Below, piece after piece: positions 9,265 to 52,900 of a DNA stretch of 64,000 bases. The stretch comes from Bilabrum cf. latius (taxonomy: Eukaryota): NCBI GenBank assembly GCA_965178125.1, contig OZ237770.1:372001-436000 (forward strand), given 5' to 3'. A model generated the notes under the pieces. That model was given only the letters and a program-made list of their open reading frames with translations. It was not told the DNA's origin and did no database searches. Made by a program: the position numbers and the translations under genes. The first letter of the stretch is position 1, and every line of letters starts with the position of its first letter.

Positions 9265-11935
9265 ATGGATGTCTAGCAATGCTGCAAGTGTCTGCTCGAG
9301 CAATTCAAGTGCCTCAAAGACCTTAGGGAGAGGTCAAGGCGGATTCTTGTATCGATAATGATTGGTGCATCGGTATATTCGTTAGGTATCGGTTTATATA
9401 CTGCTTACATGCTTGTAAGTCAATATTTGCAATACATGTTGCTATGCGGCCGGGTTCTTCAGCCAGTGTAATGCATCTCTTTCCAGGGTAATGCGTTGGC
9501 GTACTATAGTCGCCGCAGATTGGAACGGGAAAGATTGACATCCCAAACTTCAAAAATATCCTCACCACTCGACCGATAACAAACATCTCAATAGTCAATT
9601 CGCATGGAAGCTGTCCTAAAGATTTCGAGATGCTCTTGGATCCAAACGATATGATCTGGCCAGGAACAGCGTCAGGGGCTTGTGCTTGCCCGATGCCTGG
9701 CAAAATAGCCAACTCCCCTTCAAGCAGCGAGCTGTCCTGCAGTCACGAGCAAATCATTGCGGGATGTGCTACCGGTAAGATACAAGCAATGCGATTGCCA
9801 TATTTTTCGCAGCAACCCGCTCGGTCGTCATTCTTATCGTTAATGGACATTTCTGTTCATAGGCGTGCTTCACGTACTAATGTTTAAACTATTTGTACTA
9901 CTTCGCAGATCCGGCGATCGGCCCGATCGCTTCTGTTTGGCATGGCATTCGCGGACTATGTGTCCAGCGACATGCCACTGCTCGTCTATTCGCAAACGGG
10001 ACTGACAATCACGGGAAGACCCGATTATAGCCACGGCCAATGGTTTCCATGGCAGCATGCCCCACTGGCTGGAGAGCGTGCATTCCGAACGGCACGAGGG
10101 CAACCACTCCCTTGGATGGCTCTGCTTGCGTGCGGGACGACGCAGAGGTCCAAGAGCCCTGCCCCCTCACTGGGATTGCCCTTCTCACGAGGGACCAGCT
10201 AGATGCCTCAAATGGTACCTACCAAGGCAGTATCGCGCTGCCTAACGACGAATCGCTAGTACTGGCATACACGGTCGCGCATCCCGGTGGTGTACGGCCC
10301 GACGCCCAATGGGGAAAGCCTCTTGCGCCTCTGCAGCACTTCGAGCTTACTCTTGGCCAGTACCCGTGCTTACGAAGCGATGGTAACCCTGATGGCGTTC
10401 GCAGTTGGTACGCAGTGCAAGGGAGCAGTACAGCCGGTGATGGAAGCAAGTGGGACGATTGCTCGTTGCATCACACATAGAACACACTCTTTTCTGACTT
10501 TGCAACAGTCGGAGTGCAGCCAAGGCTTGGGTAGGGTGGCCACTTGCACGATACATTTGCGTAGTCAGAGCGTTGCACAGTGGATCCAGCTCGCCCAGAG
10601 GTACCAGCAATGCGGTGCAGTCCGAATGATACAATTTGTGAACGCGTTTCACACACAGGCCGTTGTGAGAAACTCCAACGCTTCGCTGCGATGTAGACTA
10701 AAGATCCAACAGTGAATGTATCTCTGGTAGCCAGAAAGGAGATGTGGGTCTCCCCATATTGCCCAGACATTGCTCAGTTGTTGGCGGGGCACATGAGCAC
10801 AAGCGCTGACGATCTTCAATACGCGGCGTACGTTGCAATCGCATTAAATTTGTTCGTTTCGTTGGTGCAAGCATCTCAACGATGCACGTTGCTCTGTGTT
10901 GGGTTTGCGTATGGCGGTTTGGAGCCTGATTCCGACGAAGATTCTGCCTCCAAGAGCGAATGGCTCAAGCATGTTGGCTGCATTGAATTCGACAATACGG
11001 GCGACTGGTACTAGGTACTAACCGAGTCGACCCCTTGTCAGCAGTGGGGCGGGGTTTTGCTTCTTGCTCTCTCGGTGTTCAACCTTGCTGCTCAACAGTT
11101 TGCTTTCTACTACGGCCGGAAACTGCTCCCTGTCGTTTTCGGGTACGACACTGGCGCAAGCTGCATGGAAGTGCCGGTGTATTGGGAATTTAATCGCGCC
11201 AGGCTATGGTACATGGGTATTAACAACAAGTTTGCTCAGACCTATTTTGCATCCTTCTTGCTCCTGTGCGGGGTACTGCTCATCTCAGTTGGGAGCTGCT
11301 GGCTTGCTTGCTTTCGGAAATGCTGTGGGCATCAACCCGACGAGCTAGAAGGGTCCATTGCTGAACGCGACTACCTTGAACTCGCTGACTGCTTGCGTGA
11401 GTAGGACACAGTCTTTGATGGGACAGACTAGCCAGGTCGCTCAATTGAAGCATTCGGACAAGTAGGTCCCGGAGCAGCCGGCTTCGCACATGTACCACTC
11501 GGGCTGTACTCCCCGGCAGACATCCGTACAAGTACACCGTGTGGAATACATGAGGATTAGTCTGACGAGGAAGCTGCCAGTGGGGAAGTTGAGGGGGACA
11601 TTTCGGAGCCTGAATACTAGTCCGTGTCAGTCCAACATGCAGAGACGGTGGCCTGCGATCGAATGCTCAGCACTAGTCGGCCCTACAAATACAGTAGCCG
11701 CAGGGGCAGCAACCGGGATCGGACAAGTCGACAAGCCGAGGAGTCCAGAACACCGCAAAGTGTTTCGTTGCCTGGCTAGGGCTCGGAAGCACTCATTGTA
11801 GATCCTGTTTCGCAGGAATAGTTCTATGAGTGCAACTCCAGGCAATTGGATCCCGATCTGGATTTGGACAACATGACGGAGCCAGCAGCAATGAGCGGAA
11901 CGAAAGCAGGTTCTCGGACCGAGAGTCTTGATTAA
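9265..11935 (+). CDS. Cys-rich multi-pass membrane protein of unknown function, ~810 aa. Predicted exons 9265-9414, 9519-9774, 9909-11935; ~13 in-frame TAG
   Basis: N-terminal hydrophobic segment (ILVSIMIGASVYSLGIGLYTAYML), Cys-rich ectodomain (PITNISIV..SCPKDFE..WPGTASGACAC), then three hydrophobic helices (ORFs 10712, 11057). Introns GTAAGT..CGCAG and GTAAGA..CGCAG restore the frame. Ends at TAA 11933-11935. Confidence 0.7.
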
Positions 11936-12216
11936 TTTGACTCCATGACTTGGTGTAGCCATTCCATCGGATGGATATTTGCCTATAGGGGAATCTTGCC
12001 CTGGTCACCATCCATGGCTATGGATGCTCCACGATTAAATCTATAGCCTATAATTATCCATGGGGGACGGCTAGCACTTATGCCAAAACCTATTCATCGC
12101 GTAGGCCTAGCGCAGAACGACGCACCATCATATCCATCCATCCACTGTACACCATCAGTTGCGTCCGGCATCCAAAGATCCGGGATTACGATTCCGAATC
12201 TGATCCAGATCCAGTC

Positions 12217-14216
12217 TCAGAACTGCGAGATGTCTCTCCCGAAGAAAAATGTACGCGCCCAGTCCGCCGGCACCTAGGCCCGGTTCCTCCAAGCCCCCAG
12301 CTTGGTCAAATACGCGCTCCTCCACACGATCCAGGCAGCCATCCCCACGATGCTCTTCGTATCGCCCCCCGTCACTGCTTTCGCCGCCTCGTTGGCTGCC
12401 TGCACGGGCGCTACTTTCGGGTCGATGGCCCCGCGCAAGTCTGCCAGAGCTCCCCAGCTGCCAAGGTAGGCGAGCGATCCAGCGTGCTTGTAGGAAAAAG
12501 GCGCCTGCCCCTCAAATGGCGCGACCTAATCCGAGACACCATCGTCTTGAGGGTCCTGATCCGACTGGCTTCCATCGCTCAGCACCACCGACTGGCCCCC
12601 CATCTCCAGTGTCGTGAGAGGGTCAACCGCGCCGCCGTGCACTGCACCCATCCCGTCCTCCTCCTCCGTGGCCCCCACGGCCACACTCATCCCCTCCCCC
12701 TAGCTTCCCTTCTTGCTCCCCTCCATCATCGCCCCCCTCCTGCTAGCTGCCTAGTTTAATAAGTCGGCCACGTAGGTGCCCTGCTGCTCAGCCACCTGGG
12801 CCGTGGCTGCCAGCCGCCGCCCCGCCACCGCGCAGCAGTCCCCGATAGCAAACACCCCTGGCAGTGTGACGAATGCGTCGTCGTCCTCTGCCCCCGGGTT
12901 CAAAGCCCGCATGAACTCGTCGGTCATCACGTGGCCCCACCCGTCCTTGGCCCAGGTCCGCCGGTCCAGGCTCCCAACGAGCTTCCTGGGGGCGATCCCC
13001 GTGGCCCAGACAACAAGCCCGTGCTCCACCTCCTCCCCCGTGCTGAGCACGACGTGCCTGTCGGTTACCTTGGTCACAAAGGCGCCCGTCTTGACCCGGA
13101 TCCTCTGCCTGGCGAACCTTCGCTTCGCGTAGTCCCTCAACTCGGAGTCGAAAGCCCCAAGGATGTCCTGCCCCTCGATCAGGGTTATGCTCAGCTCGCC
13201 CACGGCCTCGGGATACATCCTCCAGAGGTCCTCGTACACCAGGTCGTGCAGCTCAGCCGCCATCTCCACGCACGTGGGCCCGCCCCCGCACAGCACGAAG
13301 GAGAGCAGCCTGCGCCGCTCCTCGGGGGGTGTCCCAGGGAAGGAGGCAGCCTCCACGTTCCTGAGGATGGTCTGCCGGATGGCCCGCGCGTCAGCCAGTT
13401 CCTTGAGGAAGTGCACGCCGTTCTTCCGGTTTACGCCCTCGATCCCGAAGTCGTTGGACCGAGCGCCCACGCCCACCACCAAGAAATCGTACGAGACGTC
13501 GGTGGTGCGGAACTGCGGCCCGCTGTCGTCTCGGTCGCGGGCGTCCGCAGGGACCTCGGAGTGCGCGGCGCCGGTTGCGGAACCTTCCGGTGCGTCCTGC
13601 GCCGCCGCCTCGGCGAGGGCAAGCACGGGCCGGGTAGCGTCTTCGATTTCTACTCGGATCTATTTCTGCTCCGGATCGATGTGGACGGCTCTGCCGCGCT
13701 GGTACGCGCAATGCGGCAAGGAGGAGCGCACGGGCTCGGCCACGGACCGGAATTCTAACGTGCCGGTGGCCGAGGATGCAAGCAGCGGAGTGAAGAGCAT
13801 GTGGTTCCTAGGACTGCGAGAATACAAATCGACACAGCTAAATCTATAATCAAACGCACGGTAGCCAGGTAGGGCTCGACTGCATGAGCTCATTTGATCG
13901 AATAGGCTGAGTTGCACCTTGGAGATGCTAACGCGTTCCGGACATTCAAACACCAGAATCATGCGCATGAAGCGCCCACGGGTTAGGCAAAGATACGGTA
14001 ATACACAATCATTTAAGAATCTGCATACCTGATGATCGTAACATCGAAGTGCTCTGGGTGCAGCTGCCGAGCAAGTGCGAAGCTGCCCCAACCGGATCCG
14101 AGGACAGCGACTCGTTTCTTCCTTCTTCGCGCGAGCGCAGACGCCGATCGAACAAACAATCTACGCAAAATGCGCCCCGCGAGACTAACTGCACACCGAT
14201 CGGTGATCGCTTGCAT
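12217..14216 (-). CDS. Type II (alternative, rotenone-insensitive) NAD(P)H:quinone oxidoreductase, ~594 aa; intron 14028-13814; 5 in-frame TAG
   Basis: Motifs VAVLGSGWGS, SPRNHMLFTPLLAS, YDFLVVGVGA, CGGGPTCVEMAAEL, FAIGDC and ATAQVAEQQG. Past the TAG at 12751 the conserved C-terminus follows (PFSYKHAGSLAYLG...WRSAYLTKLGAWRNRA[TAG]VPADWARTFFFGRDISQF), ending in TGA at 12217. An upstream in-frame ATG at 14270 is possible. Confidence 0.92.
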
Positions 14217-14380
14217 TCTCAGGAATGTCCCGAACACTGGCTACGAATCGCGGTGAAACCACCGCTTCATGAACCTTCGTTTTCGCGAAAAACGCGGCGA
14301 AACAGCCAGCAAACGTCAAACCTAAGACTTTGAATTTCAGAAAATTGCTCTTCGTTTCTTCTTGCCCGATAACACCACCG

Positions 14381-17300
14381 TCACGCCAGGCTGAACACGG
14401 CCTGCTTGATCCTCTCCTGCAGCTGCCTCTGGGCCGCCTGCAGGTCAGCCATCACGTGCACGCGGCCGAGCCCATCCCCCAGCAGAAGCAGCCGCCCGTG
14501 CGCCCCCCACGCCAGCTGGGTCACCGCGGGCCGCAGGGACTGCAGCCCCGGGGGCATCTCCCGCCGCATGACCCCGACATTCCCAGGGGGTGCAACCTCT
14601 AGGGTGTCCCCGGGGGTGCTCCCCGCCGGACCTGGGGGACCATCATTTTCAGTCCCTCCCCCACCCATGCCCAGCATCCGGAAGAGCGACCAGCCCTAGG
14701 AGGACGAGGAGGATGACCCGGCCTGGTGGCCCCTCGCACTCGTCACACCGCCAGAGCGCGTGGGTATTGCTGTGCCCCCCGACGCCGCGAATGCCCTCTG
14801 CTGACCTGCCTGCCGCTGGGCCCTGCCACCCAGGGACATCGACATCTCGTCCGAACGACCGCGGGCGTCACTCGTCACACCGGCTTCCGCCCTGCTGCCA
14901 GGTCCTTCGGCCGTGTCTCGAGTGCTCCCATGACTGCCGGCCCGCATCGTCTCCCTCGCCGCCTCGGCCTCTGCCACTCTGACCACGTCATACACTGCTT
15001 TGGCCACCCCTAACGGAGCACTCGGAGACCTGGTCAAACCCGTTTCTGCAAGATCCAGGCAGCGAAACACTGGCATGTCCCCACCGGCGGTGCCAGCCGC
15101 CAGCACCTGCCCATCCGCGGACACGGCCAGCTGCGATGTGACGAGTCCCTGGGGAACAGTGCGGGCCGCGAGGGGCTCACCGTTGCGAGCGTAGGTCGCC
15201 AGCAGGGAACACACCACAGGGTGCAGCTCCAGCCTAGGCGACTCGCCAGACACTGACCCAGGCCCAGACCCAGGCACTCGGCCGCTGGCCCCCGCCCCCC
15301 CTCCGGATCCCCGGTGCCACAGCGCGCACCCCGCGGCGAGAGCAGAGCCCTTCTCGTCTCTCGGCTAAGTGCACGCTACTAATGCTCCACCAGCCGCAAA
15401 TGCGATGGACCGCACAGCTCCCGAGCCGGGAAGCAGAGCTGCAGCACTACTGCCATCACCACCACCGTCAGCAGCATCGATTCCCGCGGTAGCAGCAGCA
15501 GCAGCAGCAGCAGCTACTGCTCCCCGAATCAGCGCCGCCTCCCGGAACGCCTTGGACTGCCGCGCAGCGGCGTGCCGGCGCCATTCCGACTCCGGGTCCC
15601 TTCGCACCCCGGGGGCCCCTGCCGCGCCGACCCATCGCCTCGTCCCCAACAGCGCCGGTCCGATCTCGGGGTCCATGCACGCGGGGGGCTGGCTCCAGGC
15701 CTTGCTCCCGTTGGACAGCCCCTGCACGTGCACCCACCCATCGGTAGTGCCCACGGCGAGAAGGTCCTGCGAGACTTCCATGGCGACGGCGGTGATGCCG
15801 CAGTGCGATGCATCCCAGGTGCGCACCAGCACGAGAGCCACGTCAGATGCAGGCCCAGGGAACACGTCACCCGCCCGCACAGCGGAAGGGGGCGCCCCTC
15901 CGCCGCCAGCGTTGCCGCTGCTTCCATCAAGCAGTGCAGAGGCCGGACCAGAACCCTCCTCCCCGTGAGGGGGGGTACAGCCCCCCGCTCCATCCCCCCC
16001 GCCGGCGGTATTTTCGGCTCCGGATCCTCCTGCTCTCCCGTCGACCGGTTCCTCTTGCTCCTGGCTGGAGGAATAGCCGTCCTGCCCGTGGCCACCGGCC
16101 CCTGACGCACCCGAAGATGCACCACCGAGCAGTGCACCTTGGATGTGCCCCCTCCTGCCCCGCTGGTAAGCTCTCAGCTCAACGGCTAGTCCCGCTTGCT
16201 GGGGAGACCGGCGCATGGGCAGAGGGCTCGGGGCCACCTCGGATGCACCGCCGTGCGATGCACCCGCCTACAGGTGTCCCCTCGGTGCACCCCGAGCGGG
16301 CCTCATTCGGCTCCGGATCCCCGCCTCCTCGTCCCGACCGCTCGTCCTCCCATGCATACCAGACCCCACCGCCGCGGCCTGCGGTGTCACCACGCGGAAC
16401 ACCCTCACGCTCCCGTCCGAATAGCCCGCGCATAGTGTCAAGCCGTCCTCACCGGTTGCAACCACAGTGGCATGGGGACTCCCGGGGAGGCTTTCCGCCG
16501 CAAGTGCATCGCATTGCAGCGTCCGAGGACCGGCCACCCGGCGCCACCGGAGGGCCCCATCGGCGTACCCGGCCTGAAACTGCACGCAACTTATCCCCTG
16601 CGCCACATCGGCCCTTGGCCCCTGCCTCGCCAGCCGAGCGGAGAAGCAACCGCTGGGGGCACCCCCCCACACAGCGGGGTCACCCCCCGTGCCAGTCCCC
16701 CCCCATCCAGCCCTCCCCCTGGCCTGCGACAGCCCGCACCCCTGCCCCAGCAGCAGCGGACCGGCATCGGGTGCGCTGAACAGGGGAGTACCCCCGGAGG
16801 AGGGGGACCCCTCCCCTCGCCTCCCCCCCCGCTCCGATCGATGCCTCAGCAGAGCCTCCTGCAGCTGGGCGGCACCCGCGGCCACGTCCGCCGGGCATAG
16901 GTTCCGCAACCATGGCGCGGCGCCCGGGTGCCCCACGCCCCCGCCGAAGGCCACCCCCTTAGAACCGGCCAGACGGGCTCCCAGGGAACAAGCGGCGCCG
17001 CCGAGGGAGGTTCCGCTGCCACTTGCCCGCAGCGAGGCAGAGGACCGCACTGGTGCCAGCACCGCCAGCTGGCCTATGTGACGAGTGCAGCTCGCGCCCC
17101 AGGTGCCCTGGGAGGGGTGCAGCGGGGCAGCGGAACTAGCCCCTGATCCGATCCCTCGTGCCTCATCGATCGATCGGAGCATGGAGCACAGCCTTCTCCA
17201 CGCAGCGTGCCGCGCACGCTCCCGGCCTGTCATGCTGGTGTTGCCACTCGTCACACCGATGCTGCCGCTGGCCTGGCCTAGCAGAACGGCAGCAGCATCG

Positions 17301-20300
17301 TCGGCGTCCCGCAGCACACCCGCCGCCCACAGCAGCACAGCAGAAGGCAATGCAGCATCCACTGTTGTGGCGGCTGTCGGACAGCCGGCCTCCAGCCGGC
17401 CCAGGTGCCCGCTCGGGGTCGGTGCGTAGGGCCGCGGTGTCACTTGCAGCGGTTCGCCCGTGTCGGACGGCTCGTCGATCCACCGGTGGATCGCCCCCTC
17501 CTCCACGCAGCCCGCCTGCTGCCGCACCACCGAGACGTTGGTGTGCCCCCAGCACGCCAAGAAGCTCACGCTGGGCCCGGCCAGCCCAGGGAACATCCCC
17601 GCCCTGCCCCAGGCCAAGCCATGGGCCATGGCCCGCATGGCCCCGGCCACGTCACCCGTACGTAGGGGAGGGTGCATCCCACTGTGGCGCGGCATGGAAA
17701 GAGACACAGCCAGGCGAGCCAGTGCGGGGCGGGTCATGACTGGCTTCATTTCCTGCCCTTGGGTACGGGACACGGTCCGGGGCGCCTGTGGTGGTGGCGC
17801 ATCATTGGTTGAAGCTGCATCACCGGCGGCACCATCACCTGCAGTTTCTGCAGACCTGGAATCGGCCAGTTTGCTCGCGTCACTTGCGTTGACGTTACCC
17901 CCGTCATCTGCTTGTCCTACCTCTGTCCCTTTCTGCCCCCCACCCCCACTGACATTGAACTGAAGGAAATCCCCGAGAGAAAACCGAGACGGCTACCTGC
18001 TGCGGCGCCTGGCCTCGTCTGCACCTGCATGCGCTGCACCCGACGACCCCAGTCCATCGTCCACCTCGCTACCGCTGCTGGTGCTGTCGTTGTCTTTGCC
18101 GCCTTGCCCTCCACCGGCACCAGCACCGGCACCGGCACCGGCACCGCCTTCCAGCAGCGCCACCAGCCAGTCGCCCGGCAGCTTGGACCGAGCACGAAGC
18201 CAGTTGCGACCGCGCGCCTCCAGTGCCGTCTTGCTCGCCTCATTTGACGCCCTGTCCCCGCCCACACCGTGCCGCTGGCGCCCCTCCATCGCGCCCGTCC
18301 ACTCCTCCTCCTCGTCCTCGTACCCGCACGACCACATGCGCAGGGCGTGCGGCCCCGCATGCACCGCGCCCTCCCCGGCGGTTGCAACCGTCTAACCGCC
18401 AGCATCAGTCAGCAACGCTCGCGCCGCAGTGCCCTGCACCTGGGATCCGTTCGCTGGAGCCAGCGGACGGCCCACCAGACGGGCCACAGCGGTCCGCTGG
18501 GGCCACAGCGCAGCCATGTCGCTGCCCGTGGGCGGCTCCATGCACTCGTCACACGGTGGCAGAGGGGCTGCAGACATGCCCCTCTCCTCGAGAGACCGCA
18601 GCTTGGCGGTGAGCGCGCGGCGCGCGGGCCCGGCCTCCCTCTCCGACTCGGAGCTGAAAACCGCCTCGCGGGAGGGGGCAGAGCTCCCACCCCCGGCTGC
18701 CCCGTCCCATCGCCCGCCGATCATCGCACCCCCTCTTGCGCCTATGTGTTCTCTTTCCCCACTGTCCCCGCACACCTCCTCCACCACCTCCCGCGCCTCC
18801 TCTGGATCCCCCACCCACCCCAGCGTGGGGCTGAGCACGGCCCGCCCCGACAGCAGAGAACCCCCCTGGATGCCATCCACCTGGCCCCTGCCCCTCCTCG
18901 CCGGGTGATCCTCGAGGAACACCAGCTGCGGGGTCTGCCCGTAGAAGGCGATCTGGGCTTCGGTGGCCGAACGTTCGTCGGGATCCAGCTGGGCAAGATC
19001 CACTGCCCCCGCGTACGTGAGGTGGTGAAACACGTTCTTCGCCCTGACAGCGGCCTCCCCTTGCTGCTTGTGGCCAAACACGAGGTCCATCCAACTGGCC
19101 AGGCCCCTGCTCACTGCAGCGCCCTCAATGGCGCGAGACGAGGCCCAGGCGAACCGGTGAGGGCTGTCCCTCGCCCACCGAGGCAGCGTGACGTCACCCA
19201 CGCGGGTTTGGCCATCTGCAAGCGTCCCCAGCGGCAGCGCGTTGTGATTCGCCAGAGCCAGCGGCCCCGTTGATATGTCCGGCACCAGTTCCTTCACGTC
19301 CACCATGGAGGTGAGCGAGCTCTCGAGAGCGTGCGCTGTGCCCTGAAACACGCGGTCCGGACAGTCGAACCGCCCCGACTGCAGCTCAACGGCTAGTGTG
19401 GCGAACGGCTCCTGTCTGAGCAGGTAGAACACCACGATCCCGCTTGTGCTGTAGTGAGAACCGTACAGAAAGGGCGGGTATCCCTGTCCCGTCGGGTCCT
19501 CGTAGTTGTCGAAGCGGTCCTAGAAGAGGAGCAGCCTTCGGGGATTCAGTGCCCCCATGGGGACTCGCAGGTTGCGGTACACCTGCACGGACACTGCAGC
19601 CAGCGCGGCGCGTGGATCCAGCTTACCACTTTGGCCACGTCCGATTTGGCCAGCTTCAGACGGCCCGCCTTCCTCTTCCTGCCCCGCCAGCATAGTGGCG
19701 GCAAGCTGCCTTGCCTCGGCCTCGCTTGGGTCCCAACCGATCCGGAGCGCGCGGCGCCTGCGGAACCCGTGCATTCCGGCTCCGAGTCGCAGACCCGCGA
19801 GGGACCCCACTGAAGACCCCGCCCTGGGCCGCAGGATGGACCGGGGACTCATGGGTCCAGAGGCGGAGGCGGAGTGCGCGGGTGAAGCAGCCGAGGACAC
19901 GGAGGTGCTGGACGGGTGGGCCTCCTGCTGCCCCGCCTAGGACCAGGGGGATGCTGCGGATGCCGCGTCTGAAGCCTGCGAGGCCAACGAGGGAGACGCA
20001 CCGTGCATAGGTGTCCCGTCACTCGTCACACCAGCGGCGGTGCCACCCCTGCCGCGGGGAGGCACAGCCGCCGCCGACATGGTCCGTCTTTCCCTCACCA
20101 TCGCGCCCACCGATCCGGGGGAATCGGTCAACATGCCACTCTGACCAGCCTTTACCTTTCCACTCTGACCACCCCTGGCATTCGATTCGCCGCTTTGACC
20201 ACCCCTCAGGTCCAGCGCCTCCGCCTCGGTCCTCAGGGCCACGAGGGACCAAGGGAACACGGGGAACTGAGCGAGATCCACGCGGGTCCGGCCCGCGAGG

Positions 20301-33808: not shown

Positions 33809-33841
<33 letters not shown>

Positions 33842-39354: not shown

Positions 39355-39473
39355 GGTGTAGTACTGGCAGTAGTCGTTTCAGGGCTGAGATGCAGCCGGA
39401 GACATGGATCCAAATCAATTGGTGTAAATGCACGCAACATACAAAAAATAAGAATTTCACAGCCTCCCCTGTT

Positions 39474-40733
39474 TCAATCAGAGACCTGGGGCAGAAGGGC
39501 CGCCAGCACCGCATCAGTGTCGGCCTTTGCATCGAAACTCCTTCCTCCAGCTTCGCCCAGCTGCATCGCCACAGCTTGCCCGCCCCTCCCTGCCAGTGCC
39601 ACCCCTGCCCCCGCCCCCGCACCAGCCCCTGCAAACCACCACCGCAGCGCGCCTGCTGCAGCGCCCGAGTGGGAGCCTCCCGAGCTCTCTACACCAGCAA
39701 CCGACGACGATACTCCTTCAGCTGCTGCTGACGATGGTGATGGTGGTGGTGGTGCTGCCTCCCCTTCAGTCGCAAGACAGCAGCACAGTGCGAGACCGCA
39801 GCCCACGCCGAGCGCTCCATCGGCACTCGTCACACTCCGCCTGGCCAGCTCCACGGCCGGGTCCTTCACCCGAAGCACGGGCGAGAGCCTGCTCCCGGGG
39901 TGCATTGCATTGCCCTGCACCAGGCACGGCACGGCCAGCTCCGCGCCCAGGAGACCCAACGTGACCGAACCGAGCACATGCCCGTGTGACAAGCGCGCCC
40001 ACACGCCGGCAGACTCGCCTAGAGCTAGGTTTGTCGACCCGATAGCTGCTTCGGAACTAATGACGGTGCCATCGCTGGATGCGGGCGCAGACGCCGCGAG
40101 CAGAGCCGATGCCCAAGTGTTCCCGCCTGCGCCACCGTGCGATGCACCCGAGCTCTGGCCTTGCCCTCGACAGAATGCAAGCAGCGCTGCAGTGCGATGC
40201 ACCTTTAACAGCCCTGCACCATCGGAATCGGCCCCTCTCACGCTACTGGCAGCTTGCGCCTCTGCCTCTGCCTCTGGCTCCAGCCATGCTTCTTTCATTG
40301 CCACTGGCTCTAGCTCGGGCTGCTCGCCGCACCCATGGCCCACCTCTCCATCCCTGGCACCAAGCTCAACGGACAACTGATGGGCCACCCCGGCACACCT
40401 GCCCAGTCCAACAACGAGAGACCCGCCCCCATCTGCGCCAGCCTTACCGGATCCACCTGCCTCCCCATCATTGCTGTCGGTGAGGCAACATGCCAAGCAC
40501 TCGAATGCGGCGTGCACACACCCCAGGGCGAGCTAAGTGCACGCTACTCCCGCCTTGGCCGCCCCTAAGCCCTCGCCCACCGCATCCACAGTCGCCTTCT
40601 CAGCGTCCTGCCCGGCCTGCGCCATCGATCGGAGCTGCCCGCATGCCTCACGCAGATCCGCACCTGCCCTCGCCAGGAACCGGCATGCATCGGCCCTGCC
40701 CCCTTTCCCACCTGCCCCTATTCCTACCCTTGC

Positions 40734-40767
<34 letters not shown>

Positions 40768-43700: not shown

Positions 43701-43952
43701 CCGAACGACCGTCGTAGAGTCTCCACCACTGTGACGTCCTAGGAGCAAGGCGATGCATGAATCGTGACTGGTCCGTGATAGCTGCTGCATATCCTGAGCA
43801 AGCATGGCACCGCCGACCGCTTCAAGCGAGTAGCATATGCCAGTGAAGATGGATGTTGCTGTCTCTACTGTACGCCCCCCTACCACATGCGACTCTTCGC
43901 AGCAGTGCTGCTTGATACTTAAACAAACGGTTTCACGCTGACTAGATACCAT
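39474..43952 (-). CDS. Hypothetical Ala-rich protein, ~1492 aa (weak, unverified resemblance to UFM1 E3 ligase UFL1 architecture); 7 in-frame TAG
   Basis: ORFs 39474, 40533, 40971, 42045 and 42819 share one frame joined only by TAG (40533, 40971, 41658, 41874, 42036, 42045, 42819). Terminal TGA at 39474. Central KGKGSGKGKRKGKKGKG tract. Confidence 0.65.
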
Positions 43953-44115
43953 AAACTCTGCCTACTATGAGCGGTAGCTTGCGTTGTCCATTCACTGAAA
44001 TTTCAACACGCTACAAAGGACCACCGTTACGATAAATCAGATCCAAAACTACTGATTCCTGAACGGCACATTTCTGCTTTAGGTCTTGCATAAAGGAACG
44101 TTGTAATCCTTTGTC
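43953..44115. promoter_or_regulatory. Putative bidirectional promoter (163 bp)
   Basis: AT-rich gap between divergent predicted ATGs at 43952 (-) and 44116 (+). Confidence 0.45.
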
Positions 44116-47100
44116 ATGAATGGAATCGTTCTCGAGCAGAATGCGAGCTCTGGAGGCACCTACCGCGCAACTGTGTGCCAAACTGCGTTAGTATTGACGA
44201 TCGTGATTCTCGGGATCTACCTTTCTGTGCAGCGCAATGCCGTCGGAGACCTTGAACTCTACGGTAAGAATAGTCAAGGGTAAATCATTACGCTAAAGGG
44301 CTGCCTGTACTCCCAACGAAACTCAATTCGCCAAACATGAACAAGATCGCATCACCAACTGCGATTTGACCACGCACCGTATCCGTCCCACTTGCAGGTT
44401 TTAACAGCACGCTGCCAATCCATGGAGGAGATTCTGACAATTTCATTGGTGGAAACGCACAAGCTGGCGTTGTTTAGTCCTGGAACGCAACAATCTCTCG
44501 ATCTCTCCTCGACGTCACTGTTGCCGACGACGACCAAAACCAGCACGAGGCACAGCTGCATCGCCAGGTCTGCAGCCAGCAGGCCGCAAGCTTTTTCTTT
44601 GTACTAGTCTTTCCGCTCGTTGCGCTTGCTTGCTGCCCAGGGACTCCTATGGTGGCCGTCGTGAGCACGTGCTGTAAATGGGCCAACTACAGGGCTTTCA
44701 GGGAGCGCGGCGTTGGCTTCTCCGCGCAGTACTGGGTAGCCATTTTACTCACGATTCTGTCGGGTGCAGCTGCAGCCAGCGGCGACGCCTTGTTCCTCTT
44801 CGACACGAACATTCGCAATGGGAGCTTCGTCTCAAACACGGTGGCAGCTTCAGGCCTGCTTCTAGAGCCCGTGCGTCTTCTATTCACAGAGTTGGTGCGC
44901 TGCTAGATCAGGACTGCAAGATCTGAACAAAGTAAAGAACAAACAGTTGCGATTTAGTCCATTGTACTGTGGTGCTTGGGAGCACTATCGTTCTGCCTGT
45001 CCGTCGCCGCTGTCACGCTGATTGTCCTGCAGCTAGACGATGAGGTGCCAGTCCTCAACTGGAGAGTGCTGCTCATCATTCCACTGTCTGCAGACGTGCC
45101 CTCTATGTTTCTCATGCCGGGTGTAAATGATGGGCACCATGTCACGGTAGTGTCTTGCTTGAGTCGACATTCGTCACACAGAAGCTCCGAGCGACACGGG
45201 GGAACCAACGCACGCGCTTCAAGGAACGAATCAAGCAATTCGACTCACGTGGCGCGCACAACAGCAGCAATTGAAGGTGCGGCCCCATCTGCGCATTTCT
45301 CCACGCCGGCATCCGGATCGGACCCAGCCAGCCGACCATCCGGATCGGACCCAGCCAGCCGACCATCCGGATCAGACCCAGCCAGCCCACCTCCCGTACT
45401 GGTGGCACCAGCCAAGGGCTCTGAGTTCATCGAGAGGGGCATGTATTCGATCCAACGGCTTGAACACGAAGTCATGGAGCTGCCCAATGCGGTTGCAAAC
45501 GGAGTGCGCATGACCGTGTACCTCGTGACAGCCGTCATCTACTTTTTGGCTTGGTGGCACGACGGCATCTACATCGCGCGGGGTCGGCCTACTGGCTGCA
45601 AAGTTGGCACAACTCTGCAGTTCGCATTCAGCGACGCCTTCTGGAACAAGAACCCTCTCGAGGTTCCTTTCGTTGGGGTGCTCGTTGGCATTGCGGCGTC
45701 CATCATGTTTGTCGGCTGCAGCCGCCAGCTCCTACCCTTTGGCACCCAGTGCAAGCACGACCCGCTCGGTAGCAGCGACTCCCGGCTCTGCCCCTCATGT
45801 GGAGGATGGTACCTGCAGGGTGCGCTTCCCTTGGCACTTGTCGCCTCGGCTGTGCTCGAGCTGGCCTGGCTGGACCAAGAAGGAGGTTTCGATGGGCAAT
45901 CTGAGCAAGCCAACAAGGTTCGTGCCATTCTGCTGGTGCCGTCCAGGGACACGACACTTGACCCATTCTACCCATTTGCAGGCAAACGATTCCGATCTGG
46001 TGGCACTCTATTGGGCCAGATCGCATGCCTCCTAATATTAGCTAACGAGGCGGTGCTCATCATGACCCTGCTGGTGCGACCGGGCCTCGACCTCGGCGCG
46101 ACACCCAAGACGCAGCTGCGGGCGCGGGTGCCGTGGTACAACTTTGTGATGGCGCGGCAGTTCCTCATCGGATCCATGTACGATCCGACGGAAGTCGACG
46201 TGCATGGAGGCTAGAGCTCGATTCGGAGCCGTGGCGAGCCAACGGAAGGTGGAAGCAGATTTGCTAGCGGCGGCAGCAGGAAGCGCTTTGCTGCTGTTGG
46301 AATTGACCACGGAGGTCGAGATCGAAGCGCCGAATCATCATCGACCACACCTTTACTTGCTGAGAACCGTCAGTCTGCGTCATCGCATGGCTCACTCAAT
46401 GGCGATATCACGGTCGCTGACGAGAAGGCTAGCTCTGCTGCGCCAGGTGGTGCAAGCTCTGCCTCTCAACGCGTTGAAAGGGTATCCAACTCTTCTGGGG
46501 ACCAGCGCGGTATTGCACGCATACGCGCTTCCCCGTCCGCTCTCTCAGGATCACGCCCTCCTGCCCCCTTTTCCAACCAGTCCTGCTCGAGACTGTACCT
46601 GTACATCTGCTGCATCGCGAACGAAAGCAGGCCAGAGGTGGAACAGCAAGTCCTTTCCATCCTGCGCATGGCCAAGGCATACCGGAGGGCAGCGGTGCAC
46701 GACAAATTTCGTGGAGACTTGCGGGCCAAGAACGACGCTGCAGGAGACTGCCGGTGGCTGCGCAACACGTGTCACGAGGTGCACATTGTCATCGACAACG
46801 GGTTGCGGTGGGTCACGCGCGATGCACCCCCGACGTCGATTGGCGGTGGAGTGGGAGCGGAACCAGGTCTCGAACGCCAGCATCGAGTGTATTGCGAGCA
46901 GTACAACATGTTGGTTGAACTCATGAGACAGCACGTCAAAGATTCTGAAGTCTGGGAGGAAGGCGTCAACCATGGCTTTGAGCTCAGCCTCGAGCCGCTG
47001 CTCGAGACGCTGACCCCATACGGCTAGCTGAACTCGTTCAGTCTCATGCAGCCAGGCAAAGGTGGCTGGCACCGCTTCAACCTGCATGTCCACCTGAAGG

Positions 47101-49706
47101 ACATCCAAGGGCTGTGCCAGCGTGGCAAGCGCCACAACCACATCATCGTCCTCAGCCATATCCTGTCGCTGCAGGCCCGGCCGGATTTGCCTCGGGGTTG
47201 CACTGCCTTCGACAACCTACAGCATCCTGATGTTGACGACAACTAGACGTTCCTGCTCTCTCTAGACGCAGACACCCGTTGGGACTCTGTCGGCGTGCGG
47301 AGGCTCAGCTTCGATTTGGAGCAGAAAGCCGAACTCTCTGGAGTGTGTGGGCGGGTGATACCGCAGATCACCGGATCTGGCACGAGCGTAGTACATCGGC
47401 TGCAGTCGTTCGAGTACTTGAGCGCCCATACTCTCTCAAAGAGCTTAGAAGAGGTGGTCCTCGGCAACGTGACTTGCCTACCAGGGTGCTACACCCTGTG
47501 GCGCCTCAGCCACATCCGGCGCGTATTTGCTAGGTACTGCAAGGCTGTCGAGAACGTCAAGGACCACTTCAGCCTCGGCATGGGTGAGGACCGATTTCTG
47601 TGCACGCTGATTCTCGCTGCGGGAGGGCGACTGGCGTACAACCCCAACTCGATCAGCATCACCATTTGCCCAGAGAAGCTGCAGGAGCTCATCGCGCAGC
47701 GCCAGCGGTGGGACATGTCAACTGAGGTCAACTTCGATTTTACGTACACAAACACTGTATTCCTGAGGCGCATATCGCTACCGATCCAGCAGTACTCCTG
47801 CTATAACGTCGTTGCGGCGAAGACCTCGCCGCACACTACGGTTGTTCTGCTGGTGATAATGATGGACGCCGCTATCCAGAGCGTGTTTCATGCGCGCCAG
47901 GGCTGGGGCGCGGGCGTCCAGGTGGCAATGCTTCTGTTTTACCTGCTGATGATCCTCCATCACGATATGCAGCGCACCGATTTGCGAGCTAACCCAACAG
48001 AAACGCCCAAAGGAGTAATCGAAAGGATTCAGGACAACCTGTCGTGGGTAGGGAGGTCTTGGAACACGTTCATCGGCTGCTGCTGCAGAGGCTGCTTGCC
48101 TTCATCTGCAGGGTATGACGCATCTGACTCGGTGCATACACGTCAGCGTGAGACGCTTGCAAGCGGTGGCGCAGCGGGGGCAAGCGTGGCTGGAGGAGAT
48201 CCTGCTGACGACCGGGGCAAATCTGGCCAACCGTCGCGGCCGGCCGGTGAGCTGGATGCCCCATCAGCTGCAAAGGGCCTCATCAAGAAGATCAAGTACA
48301 TCGAGAAGCAGAACGACATGGACCAGAAGCTCAAGGCCTTGTACAAGGAATAGAATCAGCTGGAGTACCAGTACATTGCAATCGCTGGCATGATCAACGC
48401 CACAGTTCTGCTCCTGACTCTCTTCGTGATCGTGGCCGACTTTTTGCGTGTGCGAGACCTGCAGTCTGACATCCAGCTGGCGTTCCTGGGTCTCATTGCC
48501 CTAACCACGCAGGCCATGCTTCTATTGACGGGCGAGCTGTACAGCCAGTTCGTTAGCAGCATATGTTTCCTAGGCAGCATCTCCATATTCTTCTTGTACA
48601 TGAAGCTGCATGCCATCAGCGCCCAGGACACAGCTTCATGGGGCACACGCATCGTGGAAACTCTCGCGCAGCGCGCTGCGGGTGGCCCCACCCCTATCGA
48701 TGACGACGAGGCCAGGAAGATACTGTTCTTTGTGCGCTGGGTGCGGCAGCCTCGGAAGCGACCAGAGATCGAAGACGGCGCTCCAAGTTCAAATCCGCAA
48801 GAAGGCCAGGGGGCATCAGCTACAGCAGCCGGACAAAGCTCAAGTCCGCAAGAAGGCCAGGGGGCATCAGCTACAGCAGCCGGACAAAGCTCAAGTCCGC
48901 AAGAAGGCCAGGGGGCATCAGCTACAGCAGCCGGACAAAGCTCAAGTCCGCAAGAAGGCCAGGGGGCATCAGCTACAGCAGCCGGACAAAGCTCAAGTCC
49001 GCAAGAAGGCCAGGGGGCATCAGCTACAGCAGCCGGACAAAGCCGAGGCACAAGTCAAAGCGCCGCTCCTTCACCGACAAATGAGCCCCGTGATAGAAGT
49101 GCTGTTGTTGATGCTTCTTGTACAGGACAGATTCAGGTGCATGACCGCGACGCATTGTACAACTGGCTCTCGAAGAGCAAAAACCCGTACTTCGCACCGC
49201 AATTGCCTGGAGACCATGGGCGGGCATTTATCCATGAAGTGGCTCTCTCGGTCCTGATGCCGATTGCAGCGCGGCCCACGCTTCCTCCTGTCAGAGCGCT
49301 GAAAGTGGACGGCACTGGGCTTGGTGAGGTTCAGGATCCGCCGGCTACTGAGTGGCGGCACGGCCTTGTGGGAGAGGGCCTTTTCAAGGCAAGCGCACAG
49401 CACGACTTCGAGGAGAGGTGCTTCACGTTACTCGAGGACCTCAAGGCAGACAAGCCCTCGCAGATCGGGTGGTCCCTCTTCATAAGCCTCGCCTTCATTT
49501 TCGGGAATGCCGTGGCTTAGGTCATGTTGGAGCCATACACAGGCGGTGTCAATGTGGTTGCCGCTGTTCTAGTGGGCTCCATCACGGTGGTGGTGGTGCT
49601 ATCTTTCGCCGCCTTTCTGTTCCGGGAAGTGCAAGCCCACATAGAGCTGAGCATTGAGGAGCGCTCCAGGGTCGGCTTCGTTGAGGGGCCTCCAAAAAAA
49701 AAGTAA
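44116..49706 (+). CDS. CHS: Chitin synthase (GT2), ~1818 aa; exons 44116-44263 and 44398-49706; 8 in-frame TAG
   Basis: N-terminal multi-TM region, then catalytic motifs CIANES..EQQVLSILR, HIVIDNG, TPYG, VHLKD..GKRH, LLSLDADT, GVCGRV, QSFEY..H..K..E..G.VTCLPGCYTLWR, GEDRFLCTL and QRQRW, followed by TM helices and SWGTR. Intron GTAAGA..TTGCAG (44264-44397) is phase-compatible. Ends at TAA 49704-49706. Confidence 0.88.
45311..45387 (+). repeat. Coding tandem repeat, ~3 x 27 bp (SGSDPASRP)
   Basis: atccggatcggacccagccagccgacc repeated inside the chitin synthase N-terminal region. Confidence 0.85.
48789..49043 (+). repeat. Coding tandem repeat, 5 x 51 bp (SSPQEGQGASATAAGQS)
   Basis: Near-identical units tccgcaagaaggccagggggcatcagctacagcagccggacaaagctcaag in the chitin synthase C-terminal loop. 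Confidence 0.93.
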
Positions 49707-49957
49707 GGCACAATCCGATCAGGGTCTCAGAAGTAATCCGGATCCATGATGATAAGCAGGGAAGGCAGATCAAACGCTTGATTCTAGATTGCAGACTTTG
49801 TTTTGATTCATCCGGATTGATTTTAGGGTAAAATTTAACTTTGAACTGGCTTTAGAAGCGGAATCACTTCTCAAATTGATACAGGATCCAACACACAACA
49901 CACAATGGAACACAGACACGCAATTAAAACACCCGAATCGCTCCTACACAATGAGCA

Positions 49958-52900
49958 TTACGTTCCTCGGGGCTTACCAGGCGGTGGTCGGGCAGTGGGG
50001 GGCTTCGGCAGTCCGGCTGCCGCAGTTGCCTTGCCCCGCTTCGCCTTTGCTCGCGTCCCTACCTTCTGCTTCTTGGCCCTGCTGGCGGTGCCTTTAGTTG
50101 TAGAAGGAGACCGCTTCGCAGTCTTGGAGCCAGAGCTCCCTGAATCCTTGATCCTCTTAGATCTGGGGGATGGCGGTGAGGGCAATGGGGGCGGGGAGGC
50201 GGGGGACCGACCGCGCGGGCTTCGAGGAGGAGAAGCCTTGACCCTTACTGGGGGGCGAGCAACAGCACCTGACTTCGTTCTAGGGGGGGCTGGGCTTGTG
50301 GCAGGGCTTGACCTGCCTGTGCCTGTGCCTGTGCCTGCCTTGCCCCGCTTGGGTCTGTGGCTGGATTCCACAGCCTTGGTAGACCTGCTGGCACCTGTGC
50401 TGCCGGTCTGCGCACCTTGGATGGATGGGGGCTTTGGTCGCGGCGCTGACGCACTCATCACACCATCCTAGACCGGAAACGCAGGCACGCGCCCACCTGG
50501 GGGCGTTGGCACACCACTGGCACCTGTCACGCCGCCATATCCCGCCCTTGCCCTTGCTCTTGCTCTCGCTCTCGCTCTCGCTCTCGGACTGATGAGCCCC
50601 CTGCCCGGATCATCCACCCCTCCAGCTGTTCCCTGGGGACCACCACTCTACCCCATCGCCCCCGGACTCGTGGGATCGTCCAGAATAGCCCGAACGCGCG
50701 CCCCCACCTCCCTTGTCCTCTTCAGGATCTCCTCCAGGCTGGGCAAAGTGGCCACGGGAGCAGGACGGGTGGAGGGAGACTCGATCGAAGCAGCGGCTGC
50801 ACTCGTCACACCGTCGCGCTCCTTCCTCCGGTCCTGCACCAGGGGTGGTGTCTCGGCGAAGCGCACCCGGCTCCCGCCCAGCCTGCCGCGATCCGATCCT
50901 TGATCCGATCCTGACCCCTAGAATCGGGCACCGGGCTGCCCCGCGACACCACCTGCCCGCCCACCACCTCGGCCCTGTCGCAGCGATGACTTCAGCGCGC
51001 TGTCGCTGGGCGCGGCGCCCCCGCTCCCGTTGCGGAACATGCTCCCAGACAGGAGACCCCTCGTGTCCGTTTCATCACCACTCGCATCGTCTTGCTGCTT
51101 CCTCCCCTGAGTGTCTAGACCTAGGCTGCTTTGGCCACTAGCTCCGCCTGTTGACTAGTCCGTGGGCTCCGATCGACCGCCGCTGCGTGAGGCATCCCAG
51201 TGCGCTCCCATCGATCCCACGACACGGCTCCCCCTTTGTCCACCCTATCCGCCAGCTTGCCTCGCCCCCCCAGGAGAGGCGAAGGCCAGCGGGGATGTCC
51301 CGGCGAGGGCAGACAGGTCCAGGCCTTGAGTCCCACTGCGGGTGCTGCTGCCTGCGTTGTTCTCTGGGCCTGGGTCTGGGCCCGGGTCTGCAGGCGCACC
51401 TTGTCCGTTGGTTGATGAAGAGGTGCCGGCTTGGGGGGGAGTAGAGGGAGACGAAGAGGAATAAGGTGATGACGATGACGATGGAGAGGGTGATACAGCT
51501 GGGACCCGCCCCGGTCCCACTGCGGGAGGACCCGTCCCCCTGACCACTCCATGGCCGTGGGAATGCATCGGGATCTGTGGATTAGCCCAGCTCGATTCCC
51601 ACACTGAGACATGCGGCGCACTGGCCATGCCCAAGCCCTCCACGATGGGACCTGCACCTCCTCCTGGCCTACCTGCCCCAGTGCCGGGCAGCACCCCTCG
51701 CGACTAGGCGGGACTCTAGCCTGTCCACGGATGCATCGCATTGCCGTGGACGCCCCGATCAGCCTCCCTGTTGCCCCCAAGCGCCTGGTGGTGCTGGGGC
51801 TAAACGTGCACTGGCCGTGGAGCGGCAGGCGCGGGGGACGGCACCCACGTGGGCATGGGGCCCACCCCTCCCGTCCTCGTCACCCACGGGTTCCCGTGTG
51901 ACGAGTGAGTCTGGTGTGACGACTGATACGGGGTGGTGGAGCTGGTTCCCGGCGTCAGCGGAGGGGGTGCATAGTGCGGTGGTGGTGGGGAAGAAGAGGC
52001 AGAAGAGGAGGAGGCACCCTATCCTTGGTGCTTCGGCGGAGCGGGCGCACCACCGTGCGATGCACCCGATAGACTCCCCACAGTACCGCCCCTGCTGCTG
52101 CCCCCCTTCTCCCCCCCCGCCTCGACCTCTGCCGCCAGCCGCCGAGCCGCCCTCGCTGCCTCTGCCCGCAGGCTGGCCATAAGCTCGCCGGAGACTGCTA
52201 GCGAAGGAGCGCTGGGGCTGGGACCGTCGGGTGTGACGAGTGATTCGATGGGGCGGGGGGACTCCCGCGCGCGGGTTGCACCCTGGTGACTGGACCCCAA
52301 GGGGATGCCCCCCTGGGGGATTGACCCCATGTCGGGGACAGAGGCAGGGGACACCTGAAAATCCAGCGAGAGTGGTGTCCCCGGCTCGCTGCCATCGTGT
52401 CCGTTCGGCTCCACCAAATCGTGCGGCTGCCTGGCTCCATAGTATACCTCCCTCAGCTCTTCTTTCTATTCTTTCTACTCTTTCTCGTCCTCCTGGCCCT
52501 GGCGCCGGGTCCGGCCCAGTCCCTGTCTATCCGTTTGCCCGGTCTGTTGCTGCCGCTCACCCGCATCCCCCCGCATCTCATGGGCCTTGCTGCCATCCAA
52601 GCCATGGTGCTGCAACCCTGTCTCCGCCGGCATATCACTCGTCAAACCGCCATGGCTTGGATGGGACTGCCAGTGCTCATCCCTCCCCCCATCCGCCCAT
52701 GCAGCAGCGCCATCGTGAGCATCCTGAGCCCCGTCCTGGCCCGTTGCCTGCTGTGAATCGCCCTGCGCCTTCAACCCGCCCTTATTGACACCAGTGGCCT
52801 TTGGCGACGCATCGGTGCCTGCTGGTTCCGCTGCATCGGTCTTTTGCCCGACGGGCAGCGGGGAGCCATCCGCTCGTGGTGACCCGGCTGTCGCATCGAT

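Follow-up and report, generated by a model that had tools for sequence, protein, structure and literature searches.

UAG as a probable third glutamine codon, with UAA and UGA as stops, in nuclear DNA of a GC-rich protist possibly related to stramenopiles

Long reading frames that run through many TAG triplets raise the question of whether UAG alone has changed its meaning, and to which amino acid, or whether UAA has changed together with it. The question was addressed in a stretch of 64,000 nucleotides (the window; ∼65% GC overall) that holds ten complete frames (Table 1). The reading favored here, to which we assign a probability of roughly 0.85, is that the window stems from the nuclear genome, rich in GC and poor in introns, of a protist apparently related to stramenopiles, and that in this protist UAG is a third Gln codon and only UAA and UGA serve as stops, with UGA being preferred. 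A nuclear code in which UAG alone is reassigned to Gln corresponds to NCBI translation table 15.

Table 1. Genes, frames, and other features of the window, with their stop codons and in-frame TAG codons.
Feature	Position	Strand	Stop codon	In-frame TAG	Remarks
Kinesin-14-like gene, C-terminal motor	1942..8757	-	TGA, 1942-1944	42	Pfam Kinesin, 3.4e-99
Frame without Pfam family	9893..11935	+	TAA, 11933-11935	12	Translation, by eye only, apparently Cys-rich with hydrophobic stretches
Type II NADH dehydrogenase (NDH2) gene	12217..14270	-	TGA, 12217-12219		Pfam match
NDH2 exon 2	12217-13813	-
NDH2 intron	13814-14028	-			GT-AG, 215 bases
NDH2 exon 1	14029-14270	-
Giant BEACH-domain gene	14381..37246	-	TGA, 14381-14383	23	Pfam Beach, 5.6e-73; open frame of 7,621 codons; 0 TAA, 0 internal TGA
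Pyruvate kinase gene, last exon	37428..39000	-	TGA, 37428-37430		3′ splice site 39001/39000
Frame without Pfam family	39474..43991	-	TGA, 39474-39476	9
Chitin-synthase-like gene	44649..49706	+	TAA, 49704-49706	7	Pfam Chitin_synth_2, 3.2e-25
Convergent intergenic gap	49707..49957	.			251 bases, 42% GC, between two TAA stops
Second kinesin gene	49958..58642	-	TAA, 49958-49960	21	Pfam Kinesin, 7.2e-50
RluA-type pseudouridine synthase gene	58295..61711	+	TGA, 61709-61711	4	Frame overlaps the start of the second kinesin frame, so the real start of this gene is uncertain
Small frame	62574..63509	+	TGA, 63507-63509	2	Translation resembles metagenome contig L211 (1-780, minus strand), by-eye comparison only

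The codons were counted in 12 long frames (the ten complete ones and two that are cut by the window ends; 20,005 codons). These contain 131 in-frame TAG, a few of which are not true codons because the 5′ parts of some frames, such as the first ∼160 residues of the frame at 12217-14319, precede the true start or belong to an intron. Neither TAA nor TGA occurs within them. The first-pass annotation had claimed that internal in-frame TAA is lacking despite the use of CAA, and this holds for all 12 frames (0 TAA versus 169 CAA). Together with 730 CAG, Gln codons account for ∼4.5% of all codons, and the CAA share of CAR is 19%.

UAG is a sense codon and is read through in conserved proteins. In pyruvate kinase, the TAG at 37539-37541 (residue 487 of 523) precedes the stop by 36 codons; the alignment to PDB structures carries on past this TAG to the conserved C-terminus. 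In NDH2, only 18 codons separate the TAG at 12274-12276 from the stop, and the PDB alignment again reaches the C-terminus beyond it; in both proteins, the part after the TAG is conserved with solved structures and orthologues. Contigs from sequencing runs X7 and X8 match the window up to exactly 39000, behind a CAG, which is the acceptor of the pyruvate kinase exon. One of them (record 17 of X7), spliced at this acceptor, covers the TAG codon with zero other letters; UAG is thus present in the RNA. Whether UAG might in addition terminate at some gene ends, while being Gln inside genes, was considered as well. In codes of this kind, such as those of Condylostoma and Blastocrithidia, a codon with a new sense meaning still ends some genes and becomes scarce shortly ahead of the stops. 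TAG ends 0/10 complete frames, but these were all defined by reading through TAG, and just ten ends were looked at; at one of them (62574-63509), the last TAG is only 15 codons away from the TGA, with the tail being a predicted one. A context-dependent code is nevertheless unlikely, given the conserved C-termini that follow the TAGs of NDH2 and pyruvate kinase, and given that dedicated UAA and UGA stops exist, so dual use is not needed.

The amino acid inserted at UAG is most likely Gln, as judged from comparison of sequences. At the six alignable TAG sites, the protein of the nearest relative has Q five times and K once. The NDH2 orthologue P0121, which is 94% identical, carries Q, K, Q, and Q at four TAG sites, and the kinesin-14 TAGs at 8224-8226 and 7660-7662 correspond to Q in the relatives' proteins P0257 and P0256, respectively. 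P0123 and P0124 have Q at the NDH2 TAG site within WRNRAxVPADW, and the conserved NDH2 TAG site is Q in three homologues. The kinesin-14-like gene contains a 45-base repeat in 34 copies, in which two columns are occupied by TAG or CAG only (26 TAG and 42 CAG). Placing seven different residues at the 17 TAG sites that fall within Pfam-matching regions (12 regions) gave summed bit scores of 1158.6 for E, 1155.9 for S, 1154.9 for Q, 1153.1 for K, 1148.2 for L, 1148.0 for Y, and 1143.2 for W, by which Q is not separated from E, S, or K. In a test of neighbor context, Q ranked first, barely above V and I, and E, K, and Y were disfavored. A sense meaning other than Gln, with UAG standing for Glu, Lys, or Ser, which are polar as well, is given little weight: it can draw on E and S scoring slightly above Q in the Pfam sums and, for Lys, on the single K in P0121, but it would have to account for Q at 5/6 alignable sites, despite the small proportion of Gln codons, for TAG swapping with CAG alone in the repeat and, in the case of Glu and Lys, for the outcome of the neighbor-context test.

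With UAG as Gln, the second question is whether UAA is still a stop. The ten stop codons listed in the first-pass annotation (7 TGA, 3 TAA, and 0 TAG) were correct when all positions were rechecked. For UGA, termination is evident from pyruvate kinase and NDH2, the frames of which stop where their homologues stop. For UAA, which ends 3/10 genes of the window, one has to consider the ordinary ciliate-type code (table 6), in which UAA and UAG are both Gln, UGA is the sole stop, and TAA would be rare because of the high GC content. The ∼65% GC of the genome, the predominance of TGA (7/10 genes), and a run-on of 205 codons from the TAA at 11933 to the next TGA, where length says little, are compatible with it. 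However, TAA was not found once in the long frames against 131 TAG, although CAA and CAG stand at 169 to 730. In intergenic DNA (4.3 kb), TAA is as common as TAG (48:49), and this ratio, together with the CAA share, shows that the lack of TAA in frames is no effect of GC content. Nor does the in-frame count depend on how the frames were defined, as 6/10 complete frames have identical bounds when TAA is read as sense; the other four gain short run-ons or upstream stretches only.

As a control, frames bounded by TGA alone were used, in which a codon was counted only when it was more than 60 codons away from either end. In-frame TAA, which, if frequent and aligned to Gln, had been named as speaking against a split meaning of UAA and UAG, was scarce in these cores: the window has 119 TAG and 4 TAA, where the CAA share would predict ∼27 TAA (binomial P = 2.8e-7). 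Three of the four TAA fall in run-on and upstream parts of the frame at 9539-12547, and the remaining one sits upstream of the pyruvate kinase exon. The same count was made for 17 metagenome contigs from related species (∼77 kb), in which GC is lower than in the window and CAA makes up 40% of CAR; here, the frame cores contain 91 TAG and 7 TAA, versus ∼60 TAA expected (P = 2.7e-13). One of these contigs (L123) carries a pair of paralogues whose last residues coincide, ...RRNSTHA being followed by TGA in one copy and ...RRNSMHG by TAA in the other, and the DNA downstream is unrelated, which again is at odds with UAA being sense. Table 6 is therefore very improbable, even more so than a polar residue other than Gln at UAG. 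In one paralogue pair of L123, a TAG was found opposite Y when the translations were read by eye.

The sequence around the three TAA stops was also inspected, since GT-AG introns occur in this genome. Past the TAA at 49704, the frame runs on for 25 codons with another TAA inside, and past that at 49958 for 29 codons. The AT-rich convergent gap that these two stops had been said to flank is indeed there, its GC content contrasting with ∼65% in the genes. The context of the TAA at 49704 (AAA/GTAAGG) also resembles a splice donor; a joint starting there was not among the 15 of 38 joints that were listed. The context of the TAA at 49958 (ACG/TAATG) likewise contains GT. At 11933, the preceding codon is GAT, which means that this TAA cannot belong to a GT donor. 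Inside the convergent gap, run X5 offers a weak hint only, with contigs ending at 49854 and others starting at 49884. The claim that UAG is sense, most likely Gln, and that UAA and UGA terminate survived all tests that were run. That there is no real code change at all, the window being made of pseudogenes, assembly errors, or a virus with its own code, or UAG being edited to CAG in RNA, is highly improbable in view of frames of up to 7,621 codons with 131 TAG and neither TAA nor TGA, of housekeeping eukaryotic genes with spliceosomal introns, of the same DNA being present in runs of four studies, and of the TAG being kept in a spliced RNA contig.

The code appears not to be confined to one strain. 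Relatives of the window exist at several distances (94%, 77%, and 69% identity in NDH2), which in itself makes the case unusual, and TAG sites come and go rapidly among them. Because relatives at the species level as well as more distant ones from other samples share the code, it looks like the property of a clade. Among named organisms, the best matches to pyruvate kinase were all stramenopiles (Cafeteria, 63% identity), and the best named cluster for NDH2 was Cafeteria (52% identity). No ciliate was among the best named matches of these two proteins; ciliate genomes are AT-rich, unlike the window. In a tree of pyruvate kinase, the window sequence was placed among stramenopile sequences (support 89/78), with Perkinsus outside. 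These two proteins and one single-gene tree suggest that stramenopiles such as Cafeteria are the closest named relatives. An independent origin of the reassignment, which the earlier annotation had proposed, is plausible, because the best named relatives are stramenopiles rather than ciliates or fornicates. A search of the literature found no report of an altered nuclear code for stramenopiles. It is conceivable, and put forward here only tentatively, that this is the first nuclear code change in stramenopiles, common to an uncultured clade of GC-rich flagellates that occurs in several metagenomes and studies.

How UAG could be separated from UAA may be explained by two changes. A tRNA-Gln with the anticodon CUA would read UAG alone, since C34 of the anticodon does not wobble to A, and a tRNA with a UUA anticodon would be lacking. 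ARAGORN detected no tRNA genes of any kind in the window and 18 loci, and Rfam gave no match in the window and 17 loci (141 kb of DNA of this lineage). In addition, eRF1, as the single release factor, would have lost recognition of UAG and kept that of UAA and UGA. Such a loss has been proposed for Iotanema spirale, where it is attributed to a T32G change in the GTS motif of eRF1 (PMC5304391). As genomic DNA of the clade is present in public runs, its tRNA set and eRF1 should be directly readable.

A code that assigns UAG to Gln and leaves termination to UAA and UGA has precedents elsewhere. It is rare, and the lineage described here was previously without a report. The first-pass annotation had listed I. 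spirale, a rhizarian with UAG as Leu, and some ciliates as the cases of split meaning; the list was incomplete, as Protocruzia tuzeti, two lines of phyllopharyngean ciliates, and Scotinosphaera were missing from it (PMC11687900). I. spirale, a member of the Fornicata, is the same in that UAG alone is reassigned, to Gln, while UAA and UGA still terminate. It is a eukaryote of an unrelated group, however, and the data on it come from a transcriptome, whereas the window is GC-rich genomic DNA (PMC5304391). According to the cases set out in PMC11687900, UAG and not UAA is also Gln in P. tuzeti and the two phyllopharyngean lines, with several independent origins; these are, however, ciliates, unlike the best named matches of the window. 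In the rhizarian exLh, where UAG is Leu, 71 gene ends comprised 56 UAA, 15 UGA, and never UAG, and in Scotinosphaera UAG is Ser (PMC5304391, PMC11687900). Both share with the window the decoupling of UAG from UAA and differ in the amino acid; Leu is disfavored here by the Pfam scores and the orthologue sites. Codes of the table 6 type, reported for many ciliates, Hexamita, Ulvophyceae, Streblomastix, and Amoeboaphelidium (PMC11687900, among the lineages it names), likewise captured a stop codon for Gln, but UAA is sense in them too, which the counts contradict for the window. Viral genomes with TAG as Gln were also called with TAA and TGA as stops (PMC13524828); they are viral, whereas the window is cellular nuclear DNA. 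If the code is indeed that of a stramenopile clade, its cells would be the type of host that giant viruses with TAG as Gln would need, although a link between host and virus is speculation.

Most known captures of stop codons come from AT-rich genomes, so that a capture in a genome of ∼65% GC is unusual. Reassignments of UAG only are rare cases in which UAA and UAG changed meaning separately, and each independent origin is a clue to how recognition of one stop codon by eRF1 can disappear while that of a nearly identical one persists. In practical terms, gene callers that use the standard code split the proteins of this clade into pieces. In a public protein collection, the NDH2 entry P0121 starts just downstream of one TAG site of the window, and the entry P0122 ends exactly at another. 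Coding sequences of the clade also carry an unexplained 12-base word, GTGTGACGAGTG, at ∼0.7 copies per kb.

Under the standard code, the window (~65% GC) was split into many medium-sized frames. With TAG alone taken as a residue, they fused: ten long genes resulted, along with two frames truncated at the edges of the window, and the longest fused frame comprised 7,621 codons. The gene products are eukaryotic: two kinesins, a type II NADH dehydrogenase (NDH2), a BEACH-domain giant, pyruvate kinase, a chitin-synthase-like protein, and an RluA-type pseudouridine synthase. The ten stop codons listed in the first-pass annotation were all borne out (seven TGA, three TAA, no TAG), as was the lack of internal in-frame TAA despite the use of CAA: the 12 frames (20,005 codons) contained 131 TAG and neither TAA nor TGA. 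Gln codons (169 CAA vs 730 CAG) made up ~4.5% of the total. Introns were few and real. Removing that of NDH2 brought back a missing Rossmann motif, and the position of the pyruvate kinase 3′ splice site at 39001/39000 places the first exon of this gene further upstream. The total of 131 TAG includes a few that are not genuine codons, since some frames extend at the 5′ side into non-coding sequence (e.g., over ~160 residues at the beginning of the NDH2 frame). Between the pseudouridine synthase (+) and a kinesin (-), the open frames overlap by ~350 bases at their 5′ ends (58295-58642); the real starts of both genes thus lie further in, and TAG in this region may not be codons.

Coordinates of gene features in the window
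Feature	Position	Strand	Remarks
Kinesin-14 tandem repeat	residues ~1259-1768, roughly 3450-4980 (estimate)	-	34 copies of 45-base (15-residue) unit
NDH2 intron, GT-AG	13814-14028 (215 bases)	-	exon-1 ATG at 14270
Pyruvate kinase 3′ splice site, CAG/	39001/39000	-	contig matches end exactly there

As far as conserved protein sequence can tell, TAG is translated within genes. In pyruvate kinase, TAG stands at residue 487 of 523, and known structures (PDB) remain alignable up to the last residues; in NDH2, the conserved tail VPADW...FGRD comes after a TAG located 18 codons ahead of the TGA. The ten gene ends were defined by reading through TAG, and UAG might, though improbably, now and then act as a terminator as well; a strongly position-dependent code is argued against by these two TAG so close to conserved C-termini. 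Editing of UAG in RNA is argued against by Logan contigs from two sequencing runs, X7 and X8 (not recorded as RNA), whose match to the window breaks off at precisely 39000, the pyruvate kinase acceptor, which marks them as derived from spliced RNA, and one of which (X7 record 17) covers the pyruvate kinase TAG codon with no differing letter.

Proteins of relatives in the public collection indicated which residue is encoded. NDH2 protein P0121 (94% identical) begins shortly after one of the window TAG sites; at the remaining four, its residues are Q, K, Q, and Q. The conserved site WRNRAxVPADW carries Q in P0121, P0123, and P0124, and P0122 (77% identical) ends exactly at this TAG. In kinesin-14, the TAG at residues 178 and 366 correspond to Q in P0257 and P0256, respectively. 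Thus, at the alignable TAG sites (four in NDH2, two in kinesin-14), five of six residues of relatives were Q. The fragmentary nature of several of these proteins (P0121, P0122, P0254, P0256) was noted as well, and suggests that gene calling in this clade used the standard code, which leaves its genes split in the databases. A second line of evidence came from the 45-base repeat of kinesin-14, two columns of which contain TAG or CAG only (26 TAG, 42 CAG); of the other variable columns, two are synonymous and one is Glu/Asp. These two columns account for 26 of the 42 TAG of kinesin-14. The same gene also contains six identical copies of a 42-base unit. When seven residues were each placed at 17 TAG sites in 12 Pfam-matched regions and the bit scores summed by hand, the sums (E 1158.6, S 1155.9, Q 1154.9, K 1153.1, L 1148.2, Y 1148.0, W 1143.2) pointed to a polar residue rather than Leu, Tyr, or Trp, Q not being separated from E, S, and K. 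In a weak test, the likelihood of the neighboring context, Q ranked first, barely above V and I. Alignments to PDB entries did not inform on the identity of the residue because the TAG positions in pyruvate kinase, NDH2, and a hydrolase are variable. In one paralogue pair of a relative, TAG was found opposite Y (translations compared by eye). Judged from these comparisons, UAG is a sense codon matching Gln.

TAA ends three of the ten complete window genes. Reading TAA as sense as well, as in the code where UAA and UAG both specify Gln (table 6), left the bounds of six of the ten genes unchanged and added just short run-ons or upstream stretches to the remaining four; for two of the three TAA, the next in-frame TGA follows 25 and 29 codons on. 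The two convergent TAA stops (49704, chitin-synthase-like gene; 49958, second kinesin) do flank an AT-rich gap, as had been described, of 251 bases and 42% GC. Their weakness is that both occur together with GT (AAA/GTAAGG and ACG/TAATG, respectively) and might be part of splice donors in a genome that does splice GT-AG introns; against this, none of the 15 listed of 38 contig joints falls at the TAA context at 49704. The third TAA (11933), ending a frame without Pfam family, is preceded by the codon GAT and is thus not part of a donor; its run-on of 205 codons is partly antisense to NDH2. To test the TAA at 49704, relatives of the C-terminus of the chitin-synthase-like protein were sought; a query beginning inside a low-complexity repeat yielded no match. 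Contig breaks in the convergent gap are a weak hint of transcript ends. One X7 contig departs from the window at two points: it has C>T at 49613, and its A-run immediately ahead of the chitin-synthase TAA (49685-49693) is one A longer. The longer run would cause a frameshift and, at a depth of 2.7, may be an error.

The independence of the in-frame TAG/TAA counts from frame definition, seen already on reading TAA as sense, was checked again with control frames bounded by TGA alone (≥400 codons; only codons >60 from either end counted). The cores of such frames in the window contained 119 TAG vs 4 TAA. The 9539-12547 frame accounts for three of the four TAA, all in its run-on and upstream portions, and the fourth precedes the pyruvate kinase exon. 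At an A/G ratio equal to that of CAA/CAG, ~27 TAA were to be expected (P = 2.8e-7). In the genome at large, TAA is not scarce, with a TAA:TAG of 48:49 across 4.3 kb of intergenic DNA.

The objection that TAA is rare only through GC was examined with related species. Metagenome contigs were scanned with a two-copy pattern of the 12-base word GTGTGACGAGTG, and the 120 loci listed, of at least that many matching, were screened for the number of motif copies, GC, and the length of their frames. The 17 contigs kept (~77 kb total, 53-62% GC) were marked by frames that are longer only with TAG as sense and by dispersed copies of GTGTGACGAGTG; 13 are every contig listed from one metagenome, chosen by sample membership and not by TAA content, and four come from two others. 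A further contig, L240, was dropped as a relative (almost no TAG, many TAA), and the remaining 102 listed loci were left out, being probably tandem repeats that match by chance or DNA of other organisms. The kept contigs encode eukaryotic domains, e.g., SMC, SET, EF-hand, WW, and FSH1. Because blastn of the window against the listed 120 loci gave no match at E < 1e-10, and one protein of the relatives resembles the window frame 62574-63509 (by eye), the contigs were taken as related, not the same, species. Their TGA-only frame cores contained 91 TAG vs 7 TAA, with ~60 TAA expected (P = 2.7e-13), and CAA constitutes 40% of CAA plus CAG, which removes the objection. Complete frames of the relatives ended in 23 TGA and 1 TAA (24 TGA and 1 TAA of 25 when L240 is included). 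The clearest evidence for TAA terminating, as far as alignment allows, is a pair of paralogues on contig L123 that align to the last codon, one reading ...RRNSTHA then TGA, the other ...RRNSMHG then TAA, with unrelated DNA downstream. Counts, read-through, and gene ends together support the decoupling of UAA from UAG proposed in the first-pass annotation, with UAA and UGA ending genes. L123:3-1295 and L194:698-2968, from different metagenomes, share identical 390-base stretches around the end of one gene, so that the same relative is present in at least two samples; on L123, a diverged paralogue adjoins that gene.

The organism is tentatively placed among the stramenopiles, from two proteins. 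The best named pyruvate kinase matches were all stramenopiles (Cafeteria with 63% identity, then a labyrinthulomycete, oomycetes, and brown algae), and the best named NDH2 cluster was Cafeteria (52%). A tree of pyruvate kinases put the window sequence among stramenopiles, between the Cafeteria group and the rest (support 89/78), with Perkinsus outside. An apicomplexan origin, suggested by the best PDB pyruvate kinase matches (Toxoplasma, Cryptosporidium), was rejected on the named matches and the tree. These protein comparisons suffice to exclude both a ciliate and a fornicate.

Eukaryotes possess a single release factor, so eRF1 would have to have lost recognition of UAG while keeping that of UAA and UGA. 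On established knowledge, a tRNA that decodes UAG without UAA would have to carry C34 (anticodon CUA); duplication of tRNA-Gln(CUG) would be its simplest source. ARAGORN found no tRNA genes in the window or 18 loci, and Rfam no RNA family of any kind in 141 kb. PMC5304391 discusses both the tRNA and the release-factor requirement for Iotanema and the rhizarian exLh. According to the literature, UAG specifies Gln with UAA and UGA as stops, the same code type as in the window, in Iotanema spirale, Protocruzia tuzeti, and two phyllopharyngean ciliate lines, Leu in a rhizarian and some ciliates, and Ser in Scotinosphaera (PMC11687900, PMC5304391). The code itself is thus already known, and the window adds a further case, the weight of which lies in its lineage, its GC-rich setting, and the graded relatives at hand. 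A full-text literature search, with subscription journals and supplementary files outside it, returned no report of nuclear UAG reassignment in stramenopiles.

The window contains 45 copies of GTGTGACGAGTG (0.01 expected; e.g., 719-730, 14737-14748, 54322-54333), on both strands and always within frames. Of the sense copies, 27 of 31 are in the frame yielding the peptide GVTS and none in the TGA-creating frame; the antisense copies (n = 14) are spread over all three frames. The word is also present on the related metagenome contigs, together with tandem GVTSD runs. It appears to be a DNA-level element. A scan of viral contigs with a 14-base form matched at least 120 loci; the 80 listed had one match each, consistent with chance level, and none were used. 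Further over-represented, dispersed words beyond the tandem repeats were ATCCACCGGTGG (11 copies, containing the palindrome CCACCGGTGG), GGTGCATCGCAC (nine copies), GCGGTTGCAACC (eight copies, containing the palindrome GGTTGCAACC), and CCAGGGAACAAG (eight copies).
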